A stretch of 60,125 bases of DNA, taken from IMG/VR virus record IMGVR_UViG_3300043485_000026, positions 1-60,125 of that record; one strand, written 5' to 3'. Positions within the stretch are counted from its first letter, which is position 1, and every line of letters begins with the position of its first letter. Shown in pieces: positions 2,954-37,980 of the stretch. Below the pieces are notes generated by a model that had not been told where the DNA came from, ran no database searches, and worked only from the letters and a program-made list of their open reading frames with translations. Made by a program: the position numbers and the translations under genes. The stretch comes from a virus (Duplodnaviria; Caudoviricetes).

Positions 2954-4447
2954 TCAGGCGGTCACAGCAACAGGCGCGTCCACGGTCTTTGCAACCGGCT
3001 CAGCCGCCGCAGCCAAAAGCTGGCCCAGCACATCATCGGCCATCATTGTGGCCCACAAGTTCGCGTCCTCCTGCGTGGCGTTCAGGAAGCGGGTCCAGAT
3101 CACCTGTAGCGGCAGGAGATCCTTCAATTTGATCGCAGCATCTGCCATCTCAGCCATTGAGCGAGCCTCATGGTTCTGCCACAGTAGGGATGCGCGAGGC
3201 GACAAGTACACCGGGTCCGGTAGAGCAAGTCCAGCGACCCTCAATGTCTCCTCATGGCCCTCGCCCAGGGAAGCCTTATGCGCAACAACCTTCGCGTTCA
3301 AACCACCCTCATCAGCACGAATCGCATCGGCTGACAAGTTAGAAAACCCGCCGGCCATTGGGAAATAGTGGCGCGGGGTCTTCGTGATCATCGCGAGCTG
3401 GCCAAGCTCCTCAAGCACGCTCAAGTTCTTACGATCTGCCGCCGCGAACTCAGCGAGCTTCGCGGTCGGGTCCTCCAACATGAACGCCTCATCGGCCATC
3501 GACTTGAACGGCGGGCGGGCACGACGACGCTCCGTCGTTCCATCGGACTCGAAAAGCTGGTTGCCGTCGTCGTCCTTCAAGAACTCCCAGTCGATCTGCT
3601 GGCCGATTACGCCACGCAACGGGAAGCCCTGCCAGAACGCCACGACCAGGCCAAGGAACGTCAGGAGGTTGATCCGGTCAATGAGCCCCGTTGAATGCTC
3701 GTACTCGCCGCGGGCATAACCGAACGGGCCGGGCTTCAACCGCCTGTTCACCGGCAGCTCGACAACGGGGACAACGCCAACCCCGTTGCGCTGCAAAGGA
3801 TTCGGGAGCTGCCAATCCGCGTTTGTTTCGCCGCGTGGCTCCCACCAATCCCCGCCAACCCTGAACCGGCCACCGGCACGGCTCGAATCGTCCTGCTTGC
3901 GTGATCGCTGAAACTTGAAGACCCCATCGGGGCGATACAGAGTCGCGTACACCGAATCGTCGTCCTCAAGCCAACGCCTGAGCGCTGCGACACGATGACG
4001 ACGCGACCCGTGGCGATACATGACCACCATCTGATCCGGCCCATCAAGGGAAATCTCCGGTGACGCATCAGGCATCGGCTGAACCAGCGCAAACGAACGC
4101 CCAGACATCAACGACGCGGAATGCGCAAGCTTTGATTCAGCGTCCATCTGATTGTCCTGCCAGACACCCCACACGGCTTCGTCCTGCTTCTCGCCGCCCT
4201 TCGGTGACCGGATCCCTGAAACCTCAAGGCGATCCGTAACAGAATCAACGACAAGGGAACCCCACGGGGCTTCAGCCATCGGCATCAACATGCGATACGC
4301 CTTCGTGACGCGAGCCCGAACAATCGCCGCTGGCAACGGACAAGCGCCCGTGTAATACGAATCCATCAGGTTGTGGGCCGTGGTTCGCCGATCCAGTTCG
4401 GCCATTGTCGTGGAGAGCTGCTTGCGAAGCTCCTGCGCTGTAGCCAA
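2954..4447 (-). CDS. Portal protein (SPP1 gp6-like)
   Basis: 497 aa after terL; YY.G, LVVD..DRL, WQDNQMD, NLSADAIRA.E motifs. Confidence 0.92.
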   Translation of the reverse strand: MATAQELRKQLSTTMAELDRRTTAHNLMDSYYTGACPLPAAIVRARVTKAYRMLMPMAEAPWGSLVVDSVTDRLEVSGIRSPKGGEKQDEAVWGVWQDNQMDAESKLAHSASLMSGRSFALVQPMPDASPEISLDGPDQMVVMYRHGSRRHRVAALRRWLEDDDSVYATLYRPDGVFKFQRSRKQDDSSRAGGRFRVGGDWWEPRGETNADWQLPNPLQRNGVGVVPVVELPVNRRLKPGPFGYARGEYEHSTGLIDRINLLTFLGLVVAFWQGFPLRGVIGQQIDWEFLKDDDGNQLFESDGTTERRRARPPFKSMADEAFMLEDPTAKLAEFAAADRKNLSVLEELGQLAMITKTPRHYFPMAGGFSNLSADAIRADEGGLNAKVVAHKASLGEGHEETLRVAGLALPDPVYLSPRASLLWQNHEARSMAEMADAAIKLKDLLPLQVIWTRFLNATQEDANLWATMMADDVLGQLLAAAAEPVAKTVDAPVAVTA

Positions 4448-4460
4448 CTAGATCACCTCC

Positions 4461-6191
4461 TCACCACGACGCATACGAACCCCTAGAAGCTGATTGCCGA
4501 TTCAGAACCCCGGCCCTGATCGCGTCCTGCCGCGCTCGCCAGGACAAGCAGCCGCACATCGCGAGATCGATCTTCAACTTAGACTTCTGCGATTCCTTCG
4601 AGATCAACCAGAGAAACCGGGCGCGCTGCTTCGCCTCGCCCGATTCCGATTCAGCGACATCCTCATCACGAATCTTCGTCGGACGCTTGATCGCATTCCC
4701 AACATGCTTGATGAACGCGGCATGAGCGGTCGCAGCCTCAGGTGTCTCATCCAACGGACCATGAGACAACGCTGGTCGCTGCTCCCCATCGGCCTGCGCA
4801 ATCACGCGCATAGCCGTCTTGTATTCCTTCAACGCGTAGCCCATCGCCATTTTGCGGTTCGTCCACCACTCAACGACTCGATCAGCGCCATACTGCCCGG
4901 CCCAGCGCGACAAATCCTCCCGATAGTGCGGTGGGTCAGCGTACATCCGCCACACAACCCAGAAATCGAAGGCGAACGCGACCGCTTCGTCAAGCTCATC
5001 GATCGGGACTTCCCAATCATCGTCATCCGACAAGTCTGGTGGGCGCTCCCATACCGCTACGACAACCTGATGCCCCGATTCAACGTCTGTTGCTACCAGG
5101 CCCGTTGAATCGAAGAAGAGGGCGCCATCAAACCCGAGCGTGACCGTTCGCCCAGCCTCGATGCCGTAGGTCGTCGCCAAGGCGGCAAACACCTCAACAT
5201 CGAATGCCTTGCCGCCACCCGCAACAGCACGGTTGCCAAAGAATCGCTCGGCCTGTGTTGGATCGGTCTCAAGTAGTTCGGCGGCCTCAGCCTCAATGGC
5301 ATCTAAGTCCACCCAGGGGCAACCCTCATACACCCGACGATGAATCTTGCGACGCTCAGCCTTGTTCGTATACGACAAGCTCGGCGGCGACTCGGGATGA
5401 TGGCGAAAGATATCCAAGCGCTGCGACTCAGCCGTGCGTTGCGCGACCGAATGCTCAGCCGGATCCCACGCATTCGTGGTTTCCTCCGCACGACCACCCA
5501 TCCCAGCCAACCCGCGACGCTGAGTCTCCGCAACCCGAATCATGCCGCCCTGCGCCGTCCAAATCCCCGTCTCATCCTGCGGACAGAACGTCACACGCTG
5601 CCCAAGGCGGGAACGCGCGCTCGACGTGACCACATCGATACGACCCTTGTTCGGCAGACGGATGAACTCCTCGCCCGTCTTCGGGATCAGGTCATGCAAC
5701 GGACCATCATCGATCATTGGCCGCAACGCGTCATAGATGTTGTCCGTCTGTTCCTCTGACGTAGCCGTGATCTGGATAAGCGGCGTCGGCCACGCCTGGC
5801 CCATCGCCTCACCGGGCTCATACTCGTAGACCCAACCACAACCACAGCCATGATCGCGACAATCCCAGAGTTCGCCACCCACGGCCCAACCAGCAAACAA
5901 CGCTGGCCCAACACCCTCAACGCAAACATGTGCCGCCGTATACGGGGCTTTACCAGCCTTCTGAGGAAGCACGACCTGCGAACGGCGATAAAAGAACGCC
6001 GGGGCGAGCTGCCCCACACGTGCCGAAGGTCGCACGCGGTAGAAATTCAGCAGCGACCATAACTGCCAATCCACAAGCTTGAACGGATCGCCCTTCAAAA
6101 AACCATCCGGGACAATGCAATGAGCAGAAACCCAATCGGCTGCGACAAACAGCGTCGGAAAGTCGATCAGGTAGTCGCTACGGTGCGCCAC
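4461..6191 (-). CDS. terL: Terminase large subunit
   Basis: Walker A-like PQKAGK, ATSEEQT, Walker B-like QDETG, TTNA; nuclease domain LGFDG..FDST, ADPP, KIDLAM. Confidence 0.95.
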   Translation of the reverse strand: MAHRSDYLIDFPTLFVAADWVSAHCIVPDGFLKGDPFKLVDWQLWSLLNFYRVRPSARVGQLAPAFFYRRSQVVLPQKAGKAPYTAAHVCVEGVGPALFAGWAVGGELWDCRDHGCGCGWVYEYEPGEAMGQAWPTPLIQITATSEEQTDNIYDALRPMIDDGPLHDLIPKTGEEFIRLPNKGRIDVVTSSARSRLGQRVTFCPQDETGIWTAQGGMIRVAETQRRGLAGMGGRAEETTNAWDPAEHSVAQRTAESQRLDIFRHHPESPPSLSYTNKAERRKIHRRVYEGCPWVDLDAIEAEAAELLETDPTQAERFFGNRAVAGGGKAFDVEVFAALATTYGIEAGRTVTLGFDGALFFDSTGLVATDVESGHQVVVAVWERPPDLSDDDDWEVPIDELDEAVAFAFDFWVVWRMYADPPHYREDLSRWAGQYGADRVVEWWTNRKMAMGYALKEYKTAMRVIAQADGEQRPALSHGPLDETPEAATAHAAFIKHVGNAIKRPTKIRDEDVAESESGEAKQRARFLWLISKESQKSKLKIDLAMCGCLSWRARQDAIRAGVLNRQSASRGSYASW

Positions 6192-33732: not shown

Positions 33733-33954
33733 TCAGTCCAGCCCCAGCAGCGCCGACGAATCACCGATCTTGTAGCGCCCACCACCAGCACGACCGGGCT
33801 CAACCGTGACGGTCATGTCCCGAAACACCAGGCCCGCCAAATGGTTGCGGACCGTTGCGGCTGGCGAACCCAAGCGTGCGCTCAGTTCGTCTGCTGTGAG
33901 ACCGGGACCGCCGTTGCGTGTCGCTAGCTCGCGACAGATCGCTTGGCTCATCAT
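33733..33954 (-). CDS. Small winged-HTH protein
   Basis: LT..ELS.RLG....TVRNHL..L. Confidence 0.65.
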   Translation of the reverse strand: MMSQAICRELATRNGGPGLTADELSARLGSPAATVRNHLAGLVFRDMTVTVEPGRAGGGRYKIGDSSALLGLD

Positions 33955-34139
33955 GCAGGAACCTTCTTGTCCTTCTTGAGGTAGCCCGCGGCGAACATCG
34001 CGACGGCCACGATCGACGTGGCAACCTCAGGCGGCATGTCGAGCCCAAGCGCGTTAGCAATGACGACAAGGCCGCCTGCGAGAACCCCAGCGATCCCGGT
34101 TGCAGCGATCTTTGGCTTAGGCTTCAAATCCGTTCGCAT
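33951..34139 (-). CDS. Putative holin (2 TM)
   Basis: 62 aa, two hydrophobic helices and a basic C-terminus, upstream of the lysins. Confidence 0.75.
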   Translation of the reverse strand: MRTDLKPKPKIAATGIAGVLAGGLVVIANALGLDMPPEVATSIVAVAMFAAGYLKKDKKVPA

Positions 34140-34142
34140 GTA

Positions 34143-34385
34143 CTAGTCCCTTTCCTGAGGCTGCACGCGGTGCTCTTTCAGAGCCCTCAAACCCGCCTGC
34201 GAACTGGCGAGGACCGGCGACCACAAAGCGATCTGCTCGTTAGCAGCACCGATCCGTTCTTCGGCTTCCGTAAGACGCGCCTGCAGCAACTTTGCTTGCT
34301 CGTCGGAGGGCGAAAACTGCTCGACTGATCCGTCTGAGTCTTCCTCGAATCGCCGTAGTTTTTCTTCTCGTTCGTCAACGTACAT
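34143..34385 (-). CDS. Small coiled-coil hypothetical protein
   Basis: 80 aa; its RBS GAAAGGGACTAG is the same as the holin's. Confidence 0.6.
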   Translation of the reverse strand: MYVDEREEKLRRFEEDSDGSVEQFSPSDEQAKLLQARLTEAEERIGAANEQIALWSPVLASSQAGLRALKEHRVQPQERD

Positions 34386-34419
34386 GTGCTAGTCCCTTTC
34401 CCTTGCTAGTCCCAGAGCA

Positions 34420-34464
34420 GAAGAAAAGCCAGCGAGCCGCAGGGGACTACAGCGGCCCGCTGGC
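34420..34464 (-). terminator. Intrinsic terminator with anti-RBS loop
   Basis: 13-bp stem (one G.U), loop UGUAGUCCCCU, followed by UUUUCUUCU. Confidence 0.75.
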
Positions 34465-34656
34465 AACAAACAGTCTGACGGAGCATCGGACGACCTCAGC
34501 GAGGCCACCAGCTACCGCCCCTCAACAGGCGCAACGAACGGGCCGGCTGCCAAACCATCTGAGCCAACCCCAACACGACGAGTGCTGCAAACACTGCGAT
34601 TCCCTGCTTCTCTGCGAGTGGCACAAGGTGCCTTCCGATCAACGTGCATTCCCGAA

Positions 34657-34908
34657 TCAGTCCCCAAGCATGCCGTTGACCTCAAGCAGAATGTCCGCGA
34701 CCTCAGTGGGCATCGGCAGTCGAGACCAGCGGCCGGGCTCCCGGACCGTGGTTGCTTCCGCAGCCCACGTTAGTGCAGCCCGTTGTTCTGGCTGCAACGA
34801 CCGCCAGTGCGCTGAGCAGATCCCACCATGCTCGTTGCCCGGTGCTTTACAAGGCTCGCCGTTCGATAGCTCGCCGCACGTCTGGTCCCATCTCAGGTCG
34901 CAGCTCAC
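34657..34908 (-). CDS. Hypothetical protein with Cys/His motif
   Basis: CG....G.PC.......C..H. Confidence 0.5.
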   Translation of the reverse strand: MSCDLRWDQTCGELSNGEPCKAPGNEHGGICSAHWRSLQPEQRAALTWAAEATTVREPGRWSRLPMPTEVADILLEVNGMLGD

Positions 34909-35144
34909 AGCAGCTTCTCCGCCACGACCGGCTTTGGCTTCGGTTCATTGCCTGGCGCCACAGCCATATGGCCATAATCCCGATCGCACTCCACATCCCT
35001 GCTACTGAGCAGGATGCGATGCAGATCCGGTGTCAAATCGATGACGGTCGGGGTCATCATTGGCGAGTCCCTTCCATTCCTTGGACGCCTTGTATGTACC
35101 TAAAGACACTAACCGAGCTATCGGTCGGGACTTGGTTAGAGGAC

Positions 35145-35179
35145 ATCGTAGCACATCTGTGATACGTACGTGCTACGAT
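35145..35179. promoter_or_regulatory. Inverted repeat forming back-to-back extended -10 promoters / operator
   Basis: ATCGTAGCAC-N15-GTGCTACGAT. Each arm reads TGcTACGAT outward, and the + arm is 6 nt before ATG 35186. Confidence 0.65.
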
Positions 35180-35185
35180 CGTAGG

Positions 35186-35398
35186 ATGCACAATCTAAGC
35201 ATCCGACTCACAGACACCGAACTAGCGGAACTCGACCAGCTTGTCGCTGCAACCCGGCGCTACTACCAGGACAAGGCCATCACGAACCCCGGCTGTGCTC
35301 GAATCGCCGATGCCTGCACAAGGTCCAGCGCCATCCGAGACCTGCTCAACGCATGGCGGCGCGGGCAGGCCAACGAGCTGTTCATCGCGAATGACTAA
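35186..35398 (+). CDS. Ribbon-helix-helix protein (leaderless)
   Basis: MHNLSIRLTD.EL..LD.L...TRS..IR.LL. Confidence 0.7.
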   Translation: MHNLSIRLTDTELAELDQLVAATRRYYQDKAITNPGCARIADACTRSSAIRDLLNAWRRGQANELFIAND

Positions 35399-35752
35399 GA
35401 GCGGGTATGGCCTCTGCCGATGTGGCTGCGGCCAACGAACGACCATATCGCCCAAGAACGATACGGCCGCGGGCTATATCAAGGGGCAGCCTCGCTCTTT
35501 CGTCAAGGGCCACTAACCATCGACCACCTCTGTCGTCGCCCATCTTGCATCAACCCGGATCATCTTGAGGTCGTTACGAAAGCCGAAAACACACGACGAG
35601 GGCGGGTAGCCAAACTAACAATCGAACAGGCGCGGGAGATACGTGCTCGACACCTAGCAGGCGAAGGCCCTAGTTCGCTGGGCCGAGCCTACGGCGTGAC
35701 CGCAAGCGCCATCAGCGCAATCGTTTCGGGCAAAAACTGGCGAGACGACTAG
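35391..35752 (+). pseudogene. HNH endonuclease pseudogene (deletion plus frameshift)
   Basis: N-part C.CGCG...G.P..FV.GH stops at 35516; C-part DH.C....C.NPDHL...EN plus HTH is in another frame; paralog of 54271-54897. Confidence 0.75.
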
Positions 35753-35913
35753 CGCCGGGAGAGGACAGACGTAGGCGGGAAAACGACCAGTCCTGATCCG
35801 TAGAAGCCCGATCCACTAGCCTCAACCCCATCGACATCGAAGTCATCGTAGGCAGCATCTGGCTCATCGTGTTCTTCGGCTACCTGATCTGGACCGCCAG
35901 CCTCTAGAAACGA

Positions 35914-35943
35914 GAACAGCCCCGCTCGGGGGCGGGGCTGTTC
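35914..35943. terminator. Hairpin (possibly bidirectional terminator)
   Basis: 12-bp stem gaacagccccgc/gcggggctgttc; U-rich tail on the - strand. Confidence 0.65.
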
Positions 35944-35949
35944 GTCGCT

Positions 35950-36215
35950 GATGGGACGCGGGGGTGCATCGAGGAAACCCGATCGTACCAAGGAAAACCT
36001 GCGGCGGGCGAGGCTGCTCCTTCGAAGACAACTGCCTCGCCGCCGCACTGGGTCCCATACGGGCTCGCGCAAAGGTACCGGCACAACGGCGGCCCGCAAC
36101 CAAGGCGGGCCGCTGAATCCCCGTGCATTGAAGCCTACAACGACCAGCGCCTCCCGATGTGTTGTCGGGAGGCGCTGATAGGCTGCTGTGAAAGTTGGAC
36201 CCGCGTCTGTCGAGG
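35950..36215 (+). ncRNA. Candidate structured ncRNA A
   Basis: Closing helix 35955-62/36200-07 encloses at least five hairpins; G.U pairs favour the + strand. Confidence 0.5.
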
Positions 36216-36287
36216 ACCGGGGCCATGACACCGGAGGGCAGATCCGATGCAAGACAAGTCTAACCGATGGTCCCGACAGGCAAGGCC

Positions 36288-36557
36288 ATGAAGCACGAGG
36301 GATCACGGCAGGTCGGAGGGTTTCGCAGCATCCCCGCTCCGGGTGCTCCTGCCAGGCTAGTATCTAAGGCGAAGGCTCGCAAGGCAAAGCACCGCGGACC
36401 TAAGCGCCAGCCTGAGACCCGAAGCCACAACGCTGTGTTCCACGCCGAGTTGCGTTGCCTGCGCTCCGCCCTATGGAACAACGATAACCCTCAGCGCATC
36501 GCCCATCTTGAACGACGCATAGACCTCATCGTCAACGAGTGGGAGCCCCACACGTAG
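36288..36557 (+). CDS. Basic hypothetical protein (coupled to a 14-aa upstream ORF at 36247-36291)
   Basis: SD GGAGGG before 36247; ATGA overlap at 36288-36291. Confidence 0.5.
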   Translation: MKHEGSRQVGGFRSIPAPGAPARLVSKAKARKAKHRGPKRQPETRSHNAVFHAELRCLRSALWNNDNPQRIAHLERRIDLIVNEWEPHT

Positions 36558-36579
36558 CTTTCTTCAGCACCCGAAAACG

Positions 36580-36616
36580 TGGAAGGCCGCCCGTACGATC
36601 GAGGGGCGGCCTTCCA
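36580..36616. terminator. Hairpin (possibly bidirectional terminator)
   Basis: 13-bp stem tggaaggccgccc/gggcggccttcca. Confidence 0.65.
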
Positions 36617-36619
36617 ACA

Positions 36620-36940
36620 GCTTCCTTATGCAAGGGATCTGGCCACAGAGTAGCACTAACCTCCTGCCCGGGGACGACAGCGCGAGCACCGGGACTCATC
36701 GACACCCCAGACAATCCGTACGTGGGCCGCAAGGCCGGTAGACGGAGACAACGCCCGCAAAGGGCACCTGGCAAAGCACGACCTGGGCAGGTCTGAGTCT
36801 CCGGCTATTCCTCGAAAGGGGGTAGTACGCCCAAGCATGCAGACACTCGCACTGCCAAGGCCAACAGGCCAACCGCCTCGCTACTTAGTCCGTTAGAGAT
36901 GCAGTTCGAAGCCCTGAGGGGCGAGGCCAACAAGGCTTGA
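36620..36940 (+). ncRNA. Candidate structured, pseudoknotted ncRNA B
   Basis: Crossing helices 36663-72/36782-91 and 36689-98/36794-804; GCAA and GAAA tetraloop hairpins. Confidence 0.55.
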
Positions 36941-37050
36941 ACGGAACGCCAACCGCTGATGTCTGCAAACTACGGAGCACCGGTACTTCTCGACGTGCGC
37001 ACGCGCGAATACCAAACCCAACCAAGAACCGCAACCCCAAAGGAAATCTC

Positions 37051-37311
37051 ATGCTCGATCAGGTCCCTATCAGGTCTATCCGGTCGGGTACACGTGTGCA
37101 GGTCCGCGACGCTTTCGGTCAAGGACTTCAGCGTGTCGCAACTGGGCCATTCGACCGCGGCTACGACTTCGCCGTCGTCTGGGCCTGTCGCCCGGAAGAG
37201 TGGGAAGCAGCACAGGCAGAGGGCCGAGAGCCGGACGCTACCCCATGGCCGATTGAGGACGTGACTATGAGTTGGCCCCTGAACGAGAAACGGCCCTGCC
37301 GCGGGGGATAG
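37051..37311 (+). CDS. Hypothetical protein
   Basis: SD AAAGGA, 86 aa, globular composition. Confidence 0.65.
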   Translation: MLDQVPIRSIRSGTRVQVRDAFGQGLQRVATGPFDRGYDFAVVWACRPEEWEAAQAEGREPDATPWPIEDVTMSWPLNEKRPCRGG

Positions 37312-37326
37312 CGACAGGGCCGTTTC
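37287..37326 (-). terminator. Terminator between convergent genes
   Basis: 16-bp stem, loop UAUCCCCC, U-rich tail on the - strand. Confidence 0.7.
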
Positions 37327-37389
37327 ATGGGAGGCGCGGGGGAGAATCAACAATGTATGCAACCCGCAGGACGGAACGACACACTGAGC

Positions 37390-37980
37390 CTACGGGGCGG
37401 GCACCGCTCCCACGATCGGCGAGCACTGATACCCGAGCGCGGGAGCCTGCATCGAACAGGGAACCAGAGGCGCAGAAGGCTGAGGAACCACGGGCGAGGG
37501 CTCAGGAACCGGCTCAGGGATCGCTACAGGTGCGTCCTGGCCATCCACTCCATTCGATCCGTCCTTGCCGTCACGACCCGCAGGCCCACGTCTCCCAGCC
37601 GGCCCACGACGAGACACACCAGGACTCCCTCGCAGTCCCCTAGGCCCCCTCTCGCCGACAGCGCTCAAGCCTCGTTCGCCACGCAACCCGCGGGCGCCCT
37701 GAGCGCCACCAGGCCCTGACGCGCCGCGCACCCGACCGATACACGACTGGGGGTCCTTGGATTCCGACAAGCAACGGAGCGTACGGTTGATCTTCAAGCT
37801 GTTCTCGCGGATGTTCGCACGGTTGTCCTTGATCTCCGCACGATCCCTCGTGGCATTCGCTCCCTGCGAGTTGCCCCGCTCAAGCAAAGCCCAGCCGCCA
37901 GCAACGAGCACGAGTGCGGAGATCACGACTGCCGCGAACGCTCGCCAAACCAACAGCGCCGGATTAGGCTCCTGATTCAT
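37390..37980 (-). CDS. Membrane-anchored collagen-like (Gly-X-Y) protein 2
   Basis: N-terminal TM, short coiled coil, G-X-Y repeats, Pro-rich linker, Cys pair. Confidence 0.75.
   Translation of the reverse strand: MNQEPNPALLVWRAFAAVVISALVLVAGGWALLERGNSQGANATRDRAEIKDNRANIRENSLKINRTLRCLSESKDPQSCIGRVRGASGPGGAQGARGLRGERGLSAVGERGPRGLRGSPGVSRRGPAGRRGPAGRDGKDGSNGVDGQDAPVAIPEPVPEPSPVVPQPSAPLVPCSMQAPALGYQCSPIVGAVPAP

Follow-up and report, generated by a model that had tools for sequence, protein, structure and literature searches.

The packaging RNA of phi29-type phages, which are small protein-primed podoviruses, is phage-encoded, assembles into homo-oligomers and binds the portal. ROOL and GOLLD are phage and prophage RNAs, often encoded near tRNA genes or tRNA islands, that form RNA-only cages with no known function or protein partner (PMC12286853). 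A third family, EGFOA (Rfam RF02955), is the subject of a 2026 preprint, which calls its members putative small RNAs of large gene-poor intergenic regions and names no function (10.64898/2026.07.01.735769). It reports cryo-EM of two EGFOA RNAs, both distinct from the one described here: in vitro, the first forms a trimer shaped like a boomerang, along with a hexamer class, and the second a 3'-strand-exchanged dimer (10.64898/2026.07.01.735769). This conserved RNA folds intricately, its oligomeric structures have been solved, and it has no known biology; phage copies provide a starting place.

The sequence we analyzed, hereafter the window, is a linear 60,125-nt soil phage record from IMG/VR that is approximately 76% complete. 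Its minus strand encodes a terminase, portal, major head protein, tape measure protein, tail fiber, lysozyme and Erf, and on the strength of this gene content it is the genome of a tailed phage. Using cmscan, we detected a match to RF02955 (EGFOA RNA) at positions 36701-36804 on the plus strand, scoring 72.1 bits (gathering score 37.7; E 4.9e-11). The match spans model positions 1-108 of 108, occurs on the plus strand only, and is the sole Rfam match in the whole 60-kb window at gathering thresholds; relaxing the threshold to E 10 over 36200-37400 returned no further family above its own cut-off. The first-pass annotation had proposed a structured RNA here, had stated that it could not be assigned to a family, and had suggested an Rfam scan as a check. 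That scan returns EGFOA, and with 72.1 bits it overturns the statement. By the model match, 36701-36804 almost certainly belongs to the EGFOA family. The locus adds a new member to an already catalogued family and is not a new kind of RNA, and a candidate that had defied assignment is explained by a known one.

Mapping the Rfam structure onto the plus strand of the window places hairpin P1 at 36725-28/36733-36 with a GCAA loop, P2 at 36742-49/36797-804, and, enclosed by P2, stems P3 (36753-56/36762-65) and P4 (36766-70/36788-92). All four stems form, with a single A-G mismatch at the outer end of P2, and the minimum free energy (MFE) fold of 36701-36832 recovers each of them. P1 is the GGCC-GCAA-GGCC hairpin that had been picked out by eye at 36725-36. 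The P4 loop (36771-87, 17 nt) is near-invariant and fits the most conserved letters of the consensus; the conserved 5' CCcAG...CCGU and the loop motif G-UAAAGC-NN-GACCUgGG are both present, with CCCAG, CCGU and GGCAAAGCACGACCUGGG of the window aligning to upper-case consensus letters. By their complementarity, CCCAG (36706-10) and CUGGG (36783-87) are candidate pseudoknot partners, and we infer that their pairing would form the real pseudoknot of this RNA. Both motifs are invariant in our homolog set, whose collecting patterns required both; in the Rfam consensus (CCcAG/CUgGG), the less conserved c and g would be partners. The window RNA thus shares with the described family an end-to-end model match, a GNRA-capped P1, a P2 stem around P3 and P4, an invariant P4 loop and the 5' CCCAG...CCGU. 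It departs from that description outside the model: collected copies carry conserved sequence beyond the 108 positions (a 3' hairpin with UGCGCC and, in 51 of 65, a 3' domain), whereas the window keeps only the 3' hairpin, followed by a different 3' region.

Homologs of the window RNA came mainly from Thermoleophilia metagenome-assembled genomes (MAGs), soil metagenomes and 10 viral contigs. They were collected with patterns demanding invariant motifs, so family diversity and pseudoknot covariation are under-sampled. The first pattern scan of viral sequences yielded 93 stretches, of which eight were picked by eye for Rfam and five reached its cut-off; most of the 93 (L002-L094) share one coding-like context (GGTAAAGCAAGACCTGGGTT) and were set aside by eye as coincidental sequence. 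Several of the contigs with that context are named GVMAG. A later viral scan for the 3' hairpin gave six stretches, four of them above the Rfam cut-off, and viral pattern scans 2-4 returned chance matches or already known loci only. The IMG/VR contigs above the cut-off number 10, the window included. Among species-representative genomes, 13 of 16 stretches were matched by a model built from the window, as were 52 of 68 stretches from metagenome contigs.

Across 60 distinct homologs, all 21 of the 21 Rfam core pairs show compensatory changes. In the alignment of these sequences, 94.8% of cells are paired, and sliding the partners by 1-3 columns lowers this share to 31-53%; the homologs were aligned to a one-sequence model built from the window, a fitting that favors the structure. 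The covariation check that the first-pass annotation had put forward is therefore passed by the EGFOA fold (21 of 21 pairs), but not by the helices proposed there, which are not conserved.

Immediately 3' of the Rfam model lies a further conserved element (36805..36831, plus strand), a hairpin formed by CUAUUCCU and GGGGGUAG around a CGAAA loop and followed by UACGCC. It had been noticed before as a CUAUUCCUC-GAAA-GGGGGUAG hairpin at 36805-25, and comparison of homologs establishes it as a conserved family element. The stem pairs at 8 of 8 positions in 46 of 56 distinct homologs, and across the 56 its 3' strand GGGGGCAG and the subsequent UGCGCC are nearly invariant. At position 3 the pair is G-C in 45 homologs, A-U in three (including the window) and U-A in three. 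The 5' strand varies between C and U opposite G, substitutions that would be A.C mismatches on the other strand. In L214, a 25-kb metagenome contig from a relative of the window phage, the hairpin carries a pair-preserving U-to-C change and a GCAA loop. Because loop length ranges from 3 to 9 nt among homologs, a GNRA loop is not a feature of this hairpin family-wide. Covariation at 21 of 21 core pairs, together with the compensatory changes and the C/U exchanges opposite G in the 3' hairpin, indicates selection at the RNA level. The earlier proposal of a structured non-coding RNA on the plus strand is borne out by the Rfam match and by covariation in homologs, and its choice of strand was right: covariance models match the plus strand only, and the 3' hairpin varies between C and U opposite G.

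The fold drawn in that proposal fares differently. It was built on two crossing long helices, and the pairing does exist: helix 1 (36663-72/36782-91) pairs at 10 of 10 positions and helix 2 (36689-98/36794-803) at 9 of 10, ungapped. The pseudoknot they would form is not conserved, however, and competes with covarying stems, since the 3' arm of helix 1 (36782-91) consists of P4 loop and the P4 3' strand, and that of helix 2 (36794-804) is the 3' strand of P2. We searched the 140 nt upstream of each of the 60 distinct cores for complements to these 3' arms. An equivalent of helix 1 at 10 of 10 positions occurs only in the window and L214 (shuffle p 0.005 and 0.015), and the median shuffle p across all 60 homologs is 0.94. 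For helix 2 the median is 0.89 over the same 60, and the window itself, at p 0.53, is no better than chance. Nor does the region fold better than dinucleotide shuffles, so that the energy test fails by the criterion of the first-pass annotation itself: 36620-36940 gives z -0.67 on the plus strand and +0.82 on the minus strand, and 36701-36832 gives z -0.80. Covariation among homologs is a stronger test than folding energy, and it is passed by a fold other than the one first drawn.

These helices could still represent an alternative conformer confined to the window lineage, in which the 5' flank (36663-72, 36689-98) invades P4 and P2 so as to serve as a switch or to regulate the small open reading frame (ORF) at 36837. 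The full helix 1 in the window and L214 argues for such a conformer, as do a C-to-U change in L214 that retains a G.U pair within helix 1 and the MFE fold of the whole 321 nt, which uses helix 2 plus CCCAG/CUGGG. We nonetheless consider it unlikely. The other 58 homologs have no helix 1 equivalent, helix 2 is at chance level in the window, both 3' arms belong to stems with compensatory changes, and the window and L214 are too similar to yield a double change. The 19-codon ORF (36837-96) is present as annotated, but it is not conserved, which counts against the idea that the RNA regulates it: its L214 counterpart begins with TTG in place of ATG, has 16 codons and shares 4 of 19 residues. Smaller features reported around it had mixed fates. 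The sequence AGGCCAACA does occur twice, at 36858 and 36924, but only one copy is retained in L214. ACUGC (36851) and GCAGU are both present; as judged by eye, L214 keeps three of the five pairs of the contact proposed between the GCAGU loop and ACUGC and shows one exchange of U-A for A-U.

In most homologs, the 3' hairpin is the end of a domain of approximately 125 nt that starts right after P2 and comprises helix Ha, hairpin P7 and extended hairpin P8. These helices were first proposed by eye, RNAalifold on plain MAFFT alignments of the flanks having recovered little. In an unfitted MAFFT alignment of 18 sequences (A8), 84.3% of cells are paired, compared with 43-49% when slid, and 11 pairs changed on both sides; in a fitted alignment of 52 realigned matches (A9), 92.2% are paired, compared with 32-54%, and 18 of 22 pairs changed on both sides. 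A covariance model of the domain (R2) matches 51 of 65 non-window loci, always on the strand of the core and beginning -11 to +23 nt from its 3' end; for three of the 14 misses, fewer than 65 nt are available downstream. Ha would be crossed by a further proposed long-range pairing, GGCA.ACGG with CCGUUGUC. On the other side of the core, the 5' domains of other homologs measure 100-150 nt and come in at least two architectures, each closed by a helix ending just before CCCAG, as assigned by eye. From blastn profiles, the commonly conserved unit runs from about -140 to +230 relative to the core start. No family in Rfam 15 matches the 5' or 3' flanks (E up to 10). We also tried RF02956 as the EGFOA-assoc-1 motif, which we take to occur near EGFOA; RF02956 is DUF2693 and gave no match.

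The window copy lacks the canonical domain: downstream of 36804, the best plus-strand match to R2 scores 5.8 bits (E 0.13). Only a P8-like hairpin of the 3' domain is kept, into which P2 runs straight, and a different 3' region follows. To judge by this sequence difference, the window copy may be a reduced or rewired variant with different behavior.

Comparison with L214 helps delimit what surrounds this copy. Window positions 36459-36966 align to L214 at 84%, flanking genes are ~70% identical, and 36495-36845 is almost identical in the two. Since the rest of the aligned block is the 3' end of a gene for a small basic protein, the non-coding conserved block is ~36558-36966. Similarity stops at 36966, 85 nt before the next ORF, and the L214 sequence beyond differs. 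The 5' flank of the core (36616..36700, plus strand) is ~90% or more identical to L214, far above the flanking genes; it is possibly a 5' domain or a promoter, and a local hairpin, CCCGG 36667-71 with CCGGG 36689-93, is possible within it. Farther upstream, a 12-bp G+C-rich hairpin of GGAAGGCCGCCC and GGGCGGCCUUCC with no U tract (36581..36615, plus strand) is the same in L214 save for a 1-nt loop deletion. It either terminates the small gene upstream or begins the RNA itself, and a simple terminator scan did not call it. The lineage-specific 3' region (36832..36966, plus strand) is common to the window and L214 only. It holds a long-range helix (GCAGACA 36839-45 with UGUCUGC 36960-66) and a long hairpin with its base at 36875-81/36921-27, and RNAalifold on the window and L214 keeps both, with almost no informative changes between two near-identical sequences. 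This region is possibly part of the RNA.

The small basic protein gene (36267-36557, plus strand, 96 aa) lies directly upstream of the RNA. Its L214 counterpart (4218-4481, 87 aa) is 56% identical at the protein level, and the two C-termini are nearly identical (RIA.LERRID.IVNEWEPHT). The protein has no Pfam or PHROG match, and its gene was not found beside other EGFOA copies.

The RNA is housed in a plus-strand island (33918-37719) of small unassigned ORFs and an HNH endonuclease gene (35420-35752), situated between the tail genes and the lysis/early genes, both of which are on the minus strand. The earlier description of the RNA as lying opposite the late operon was correct, with late genes on the minus strand and the RNA on the plus strand. 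Apart from the HNH endonuclease, the small ORFs around the RNA have no Pfam or PHROGs match. The window contains no tRNA gene and no PF00589 match, the record being 76% complete; a blastn search of 36560-36960 against GenBank phages gave zero matches, and a simple scan of the locus called no sigma-70-like promoter and no U-tract terminator. A sequencing-run search turned up 13 rows of DNA type, two of which may come from the source sample, and no RNA run.

Within the island, the RNA occupies a 494-nt gap upstream of a same-strand ORF (37052-37264) that is preceded by a Shine-Dalgarno-like AAAGGAAA, an arrangement that would suit a cis-acting leader, riboswitch-like or attenuator, for that ORF. 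We find this quite improbable. The downstream gene is not conserved in 68 loci and neighbor orientation varies; in L214, similarity ends 85 nt short of the ORF and other sequence takes its place; and Rfam types EGFOA as an sRNA gene. More broadly, no protein family is conserved beside the RNA across the 68 loci, the top "families" being ORFs that overlie the RNA itself. Because no neighboring protein family is conserved and L214 differs downstream, the RNA does not appear to be cis-regulatory. Pfam matches on neighbors include a capsid-protease fusion, hydrolases, a helicase and an HNH enzyme. At one MAG locus (L101), an HNH gene lies 0.4-0.9 kb downstream of the EGFOA copy. Separately, a 57-kb metagenome contig (L206) has a sub-threshold match to skipping-rope RNA (RF02924) at 4046-4127 on the minus strand (26.7 bits against 36.7; E 0.035), ~0.7 kb from its EGFOA copy.

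Bacterial copies of EGFOA point to a host lineage. Twelve of the 13 matches in species-representative genomes are titled Solirubrobacterales, Solirubrobacteraceae, Conexibacteraceae, Thermoleophilaceae, Thermoleophilia, Gaiellales or Gaiellaceae, and the other "Actinomycetes bacterium"; by taxonomy look-up, Solirubrobacterales and Gaiellales are orders of the class Thermoleophilia and contain Solirubrobacteraceae, Conexibacteraceae and Gaiellaceae. Occurrence is sporadic, with the RNA present in four of 151 genomes sampled from the class of a Solirubrobacterales MAG. Of five other MAGs searched, four carry one copy and the fifth carries three. A Conexibacteraceae MAG (G005, from L107) has three copies, two of which share a contig with integrase matches, at distances of 1.7 and 6.8 kb.

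Seven of the 10 copies in eight MAGs lie 0.26-6.8 kb from a PF00589 integrase match, some of these matches being short fragments. Those MAGs contain 3-18 PF00589 matches per 2.5-4.5 Mb, and we estimate that such proximity would be expected for only a few percent of random sites. One of the integrase-near copies is also 4 kb from a capsid gene. Of 60 loci scanned, 47 of them with 600 nt or more available upstream, nine have a tRNA gene upstream on the same strand, and an additional viral contig does too. The distance to the core is 210-271 nt in seven loci and 449-541 nt in three. ARAGORN typed the tRNAs at nine loci as His, Met, Glu (five near-identical loci), Val and Arg, making five identities. 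By this sequence context, EGFOA RNA is carried by phages and integrase-linked elements.

The integrases and tRNA genes near bacterial copies might also suggest that the conserved sequence is a DNA-level site, such as attP, pac or an origin, and not an RNA. This is very improbable: compensatory changes and a G.U pattern specific to one strand both speak for selection on an RNA, and the same invariant core stands beside five different tRNA genes, which implies no target specificity.

We consider it likely that EGFOA is a stand-alone structural RNA that acts through its three-dimensional shape, most plausibly as a homo-oligomeric scaffold or decoy of phages and integrated elements, and that it is not a cis-regulator. 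The RNA would be made as a stand-alone transcript of roughly 130-350 nt, and its invariant loops would serve tertiary and intermolecular contacts. Oligomerization of the window RNA is inferred by analogy with the two other members for which it is reported in vitro, and the idea of a scaffold RNA, already raised in the first-pass annotation, fits the trimers and dimers described in that report (10.64898/2026.07.01.735769). Such a scaffold or decoy would act during infection or lysogeny. Judged by context, we think a role in phage-host or lysogeny biology most likely; any specific cellular role would be no more than a guess. We speculate that an RNA encoded shortly after a tRNA gene could arise by read-through or be co-processed with the tRNA.

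The likeness to ROOL and GOLLD extends to phage encoding, tRNA-gene proximity and RNA-only homo-oligomers, the last seen for EGFOA in other members in vitro; with GOLLD, EGFOA also shares a universal part combined with a variable 5' part (PMC12286853). ROOL and GOLLD differ in being ~580 and >800 nt long and forming closed cages, whereas reported EGFOA oligomers are open trimers or dimers. Rfam matches to ROOL or GOLLD are absent from the window (gathering score), from 36200-37400 (E up to 10) and from the loci scanned. With respect to the phi29 packaging RNA, nothing links EGFOA to packaging, and its integrase-adjacent bacterial copies argue against that role.

Invariant nucleotides in loops and junctions, together with nearby integrases, would also fit a catalytic RNA, such as a ribozyme of mobile elements that cleaves itself; self-cleaving ribozymes of bacteria are stated to be found frequently no more than 6 kb from genes of certain classes (PMC5737381). 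We give catalysis very little credence, since no Rfam ribozyme family matches 36200-37400 at E up to 10. In addition, EGFOA RNAs were refolded intact in 10 mM Mg at 50 C and solved as whole chains according to the preprint (10.64898/2026.07.01.735769), which weighs weakly against cleavage in the core. A shape-based structural RNA remains our preferred reading.

Three aspects of these results may be new: the conservation of a 3' hairpin and a 3' domain, the modularity of the 5' domains, and the association with phages, integrases and tRNA genes in Thermoleophilia. EGFOA goes unmentioned in the main text of PMC5737381, and full-text searching for the family turned up one relevant paper. The integrase- and tRNA-adjacent bacterial copies name Thermoleophilia as a host lineage. 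A covarying 3' domain is present in most copies, and the Rfam model and structural constructs may omit it. Collectively, the results point to the hosts, elements, transcript length and conditions (infection or lysogeny) worth examining.

A second structured-RNA candidate lies in the same island on the minus strand (35905-36215) and is probably the element that the first-pass annotation called RNA A. Its fold is far more stable than that of shuffled sequence (z -7.32; MFE -169.8 against -129.3 kcal/mol), and it ends in an intrinsic terminator, a 12-bp G+C stem followed by UCGUUUCU. The 3' domain model R2 matches 35960-36096 within it on the minus strand (21.2 bits; E 0.0044 in 394 kb), the only off-target match of that search, ~600 nt from an EGFOA core without a 3' domain of its own. 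The candidate contains no EGFOA core and no Rfam family (E up to 10), and blastn found no relatives of 35900-36260 in GenBank phages or in the collected loci. A 185-aa minus-strand "ORF" overlapping it has no family match and is probably spurious.

These observations admit a broader and more tentative model, possible but in our estimate less probable than its negation. The 108-nt motif in Rfam may be the invariant core of a larger modular RNA of ~350-400 nt, composed of a variable 5' domain, the core and the ~125-nt 3' domain. Such an RNA would be borne on phages and integrase-linked islands of soil Actinomycetota, with a preference for sites immediately 3' of tRNA genes, and would be akin to ROOL and GOLLD on a smaller scale. 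In the window phage, the 3' domain would have been lost from the core transcript, and a 3'-domain-like module would reside in the separate, very stably folded minus-strand RNA ~600 nt away (35905-36215), with the two perhaps assembling in trans.

The segment around this second candidate differs in size between relatives, the window having ~1200 nt at ~35090-36290 and L214 ~370 nt. Because L214 is shorter here, the HNH gene (35420-35752) and the minus-strand RNA candidate look like an insertion beside the EGFOA locus. Finally, a 52-kb viral contig (L224), in which neither model detects an EGFOA core, has a partial match to the 3' domain at 2547-2615 on the minus strand (25.8 bits, model positions 4-90), and by its sequence this may be another free-standing 3'-domain-like element.
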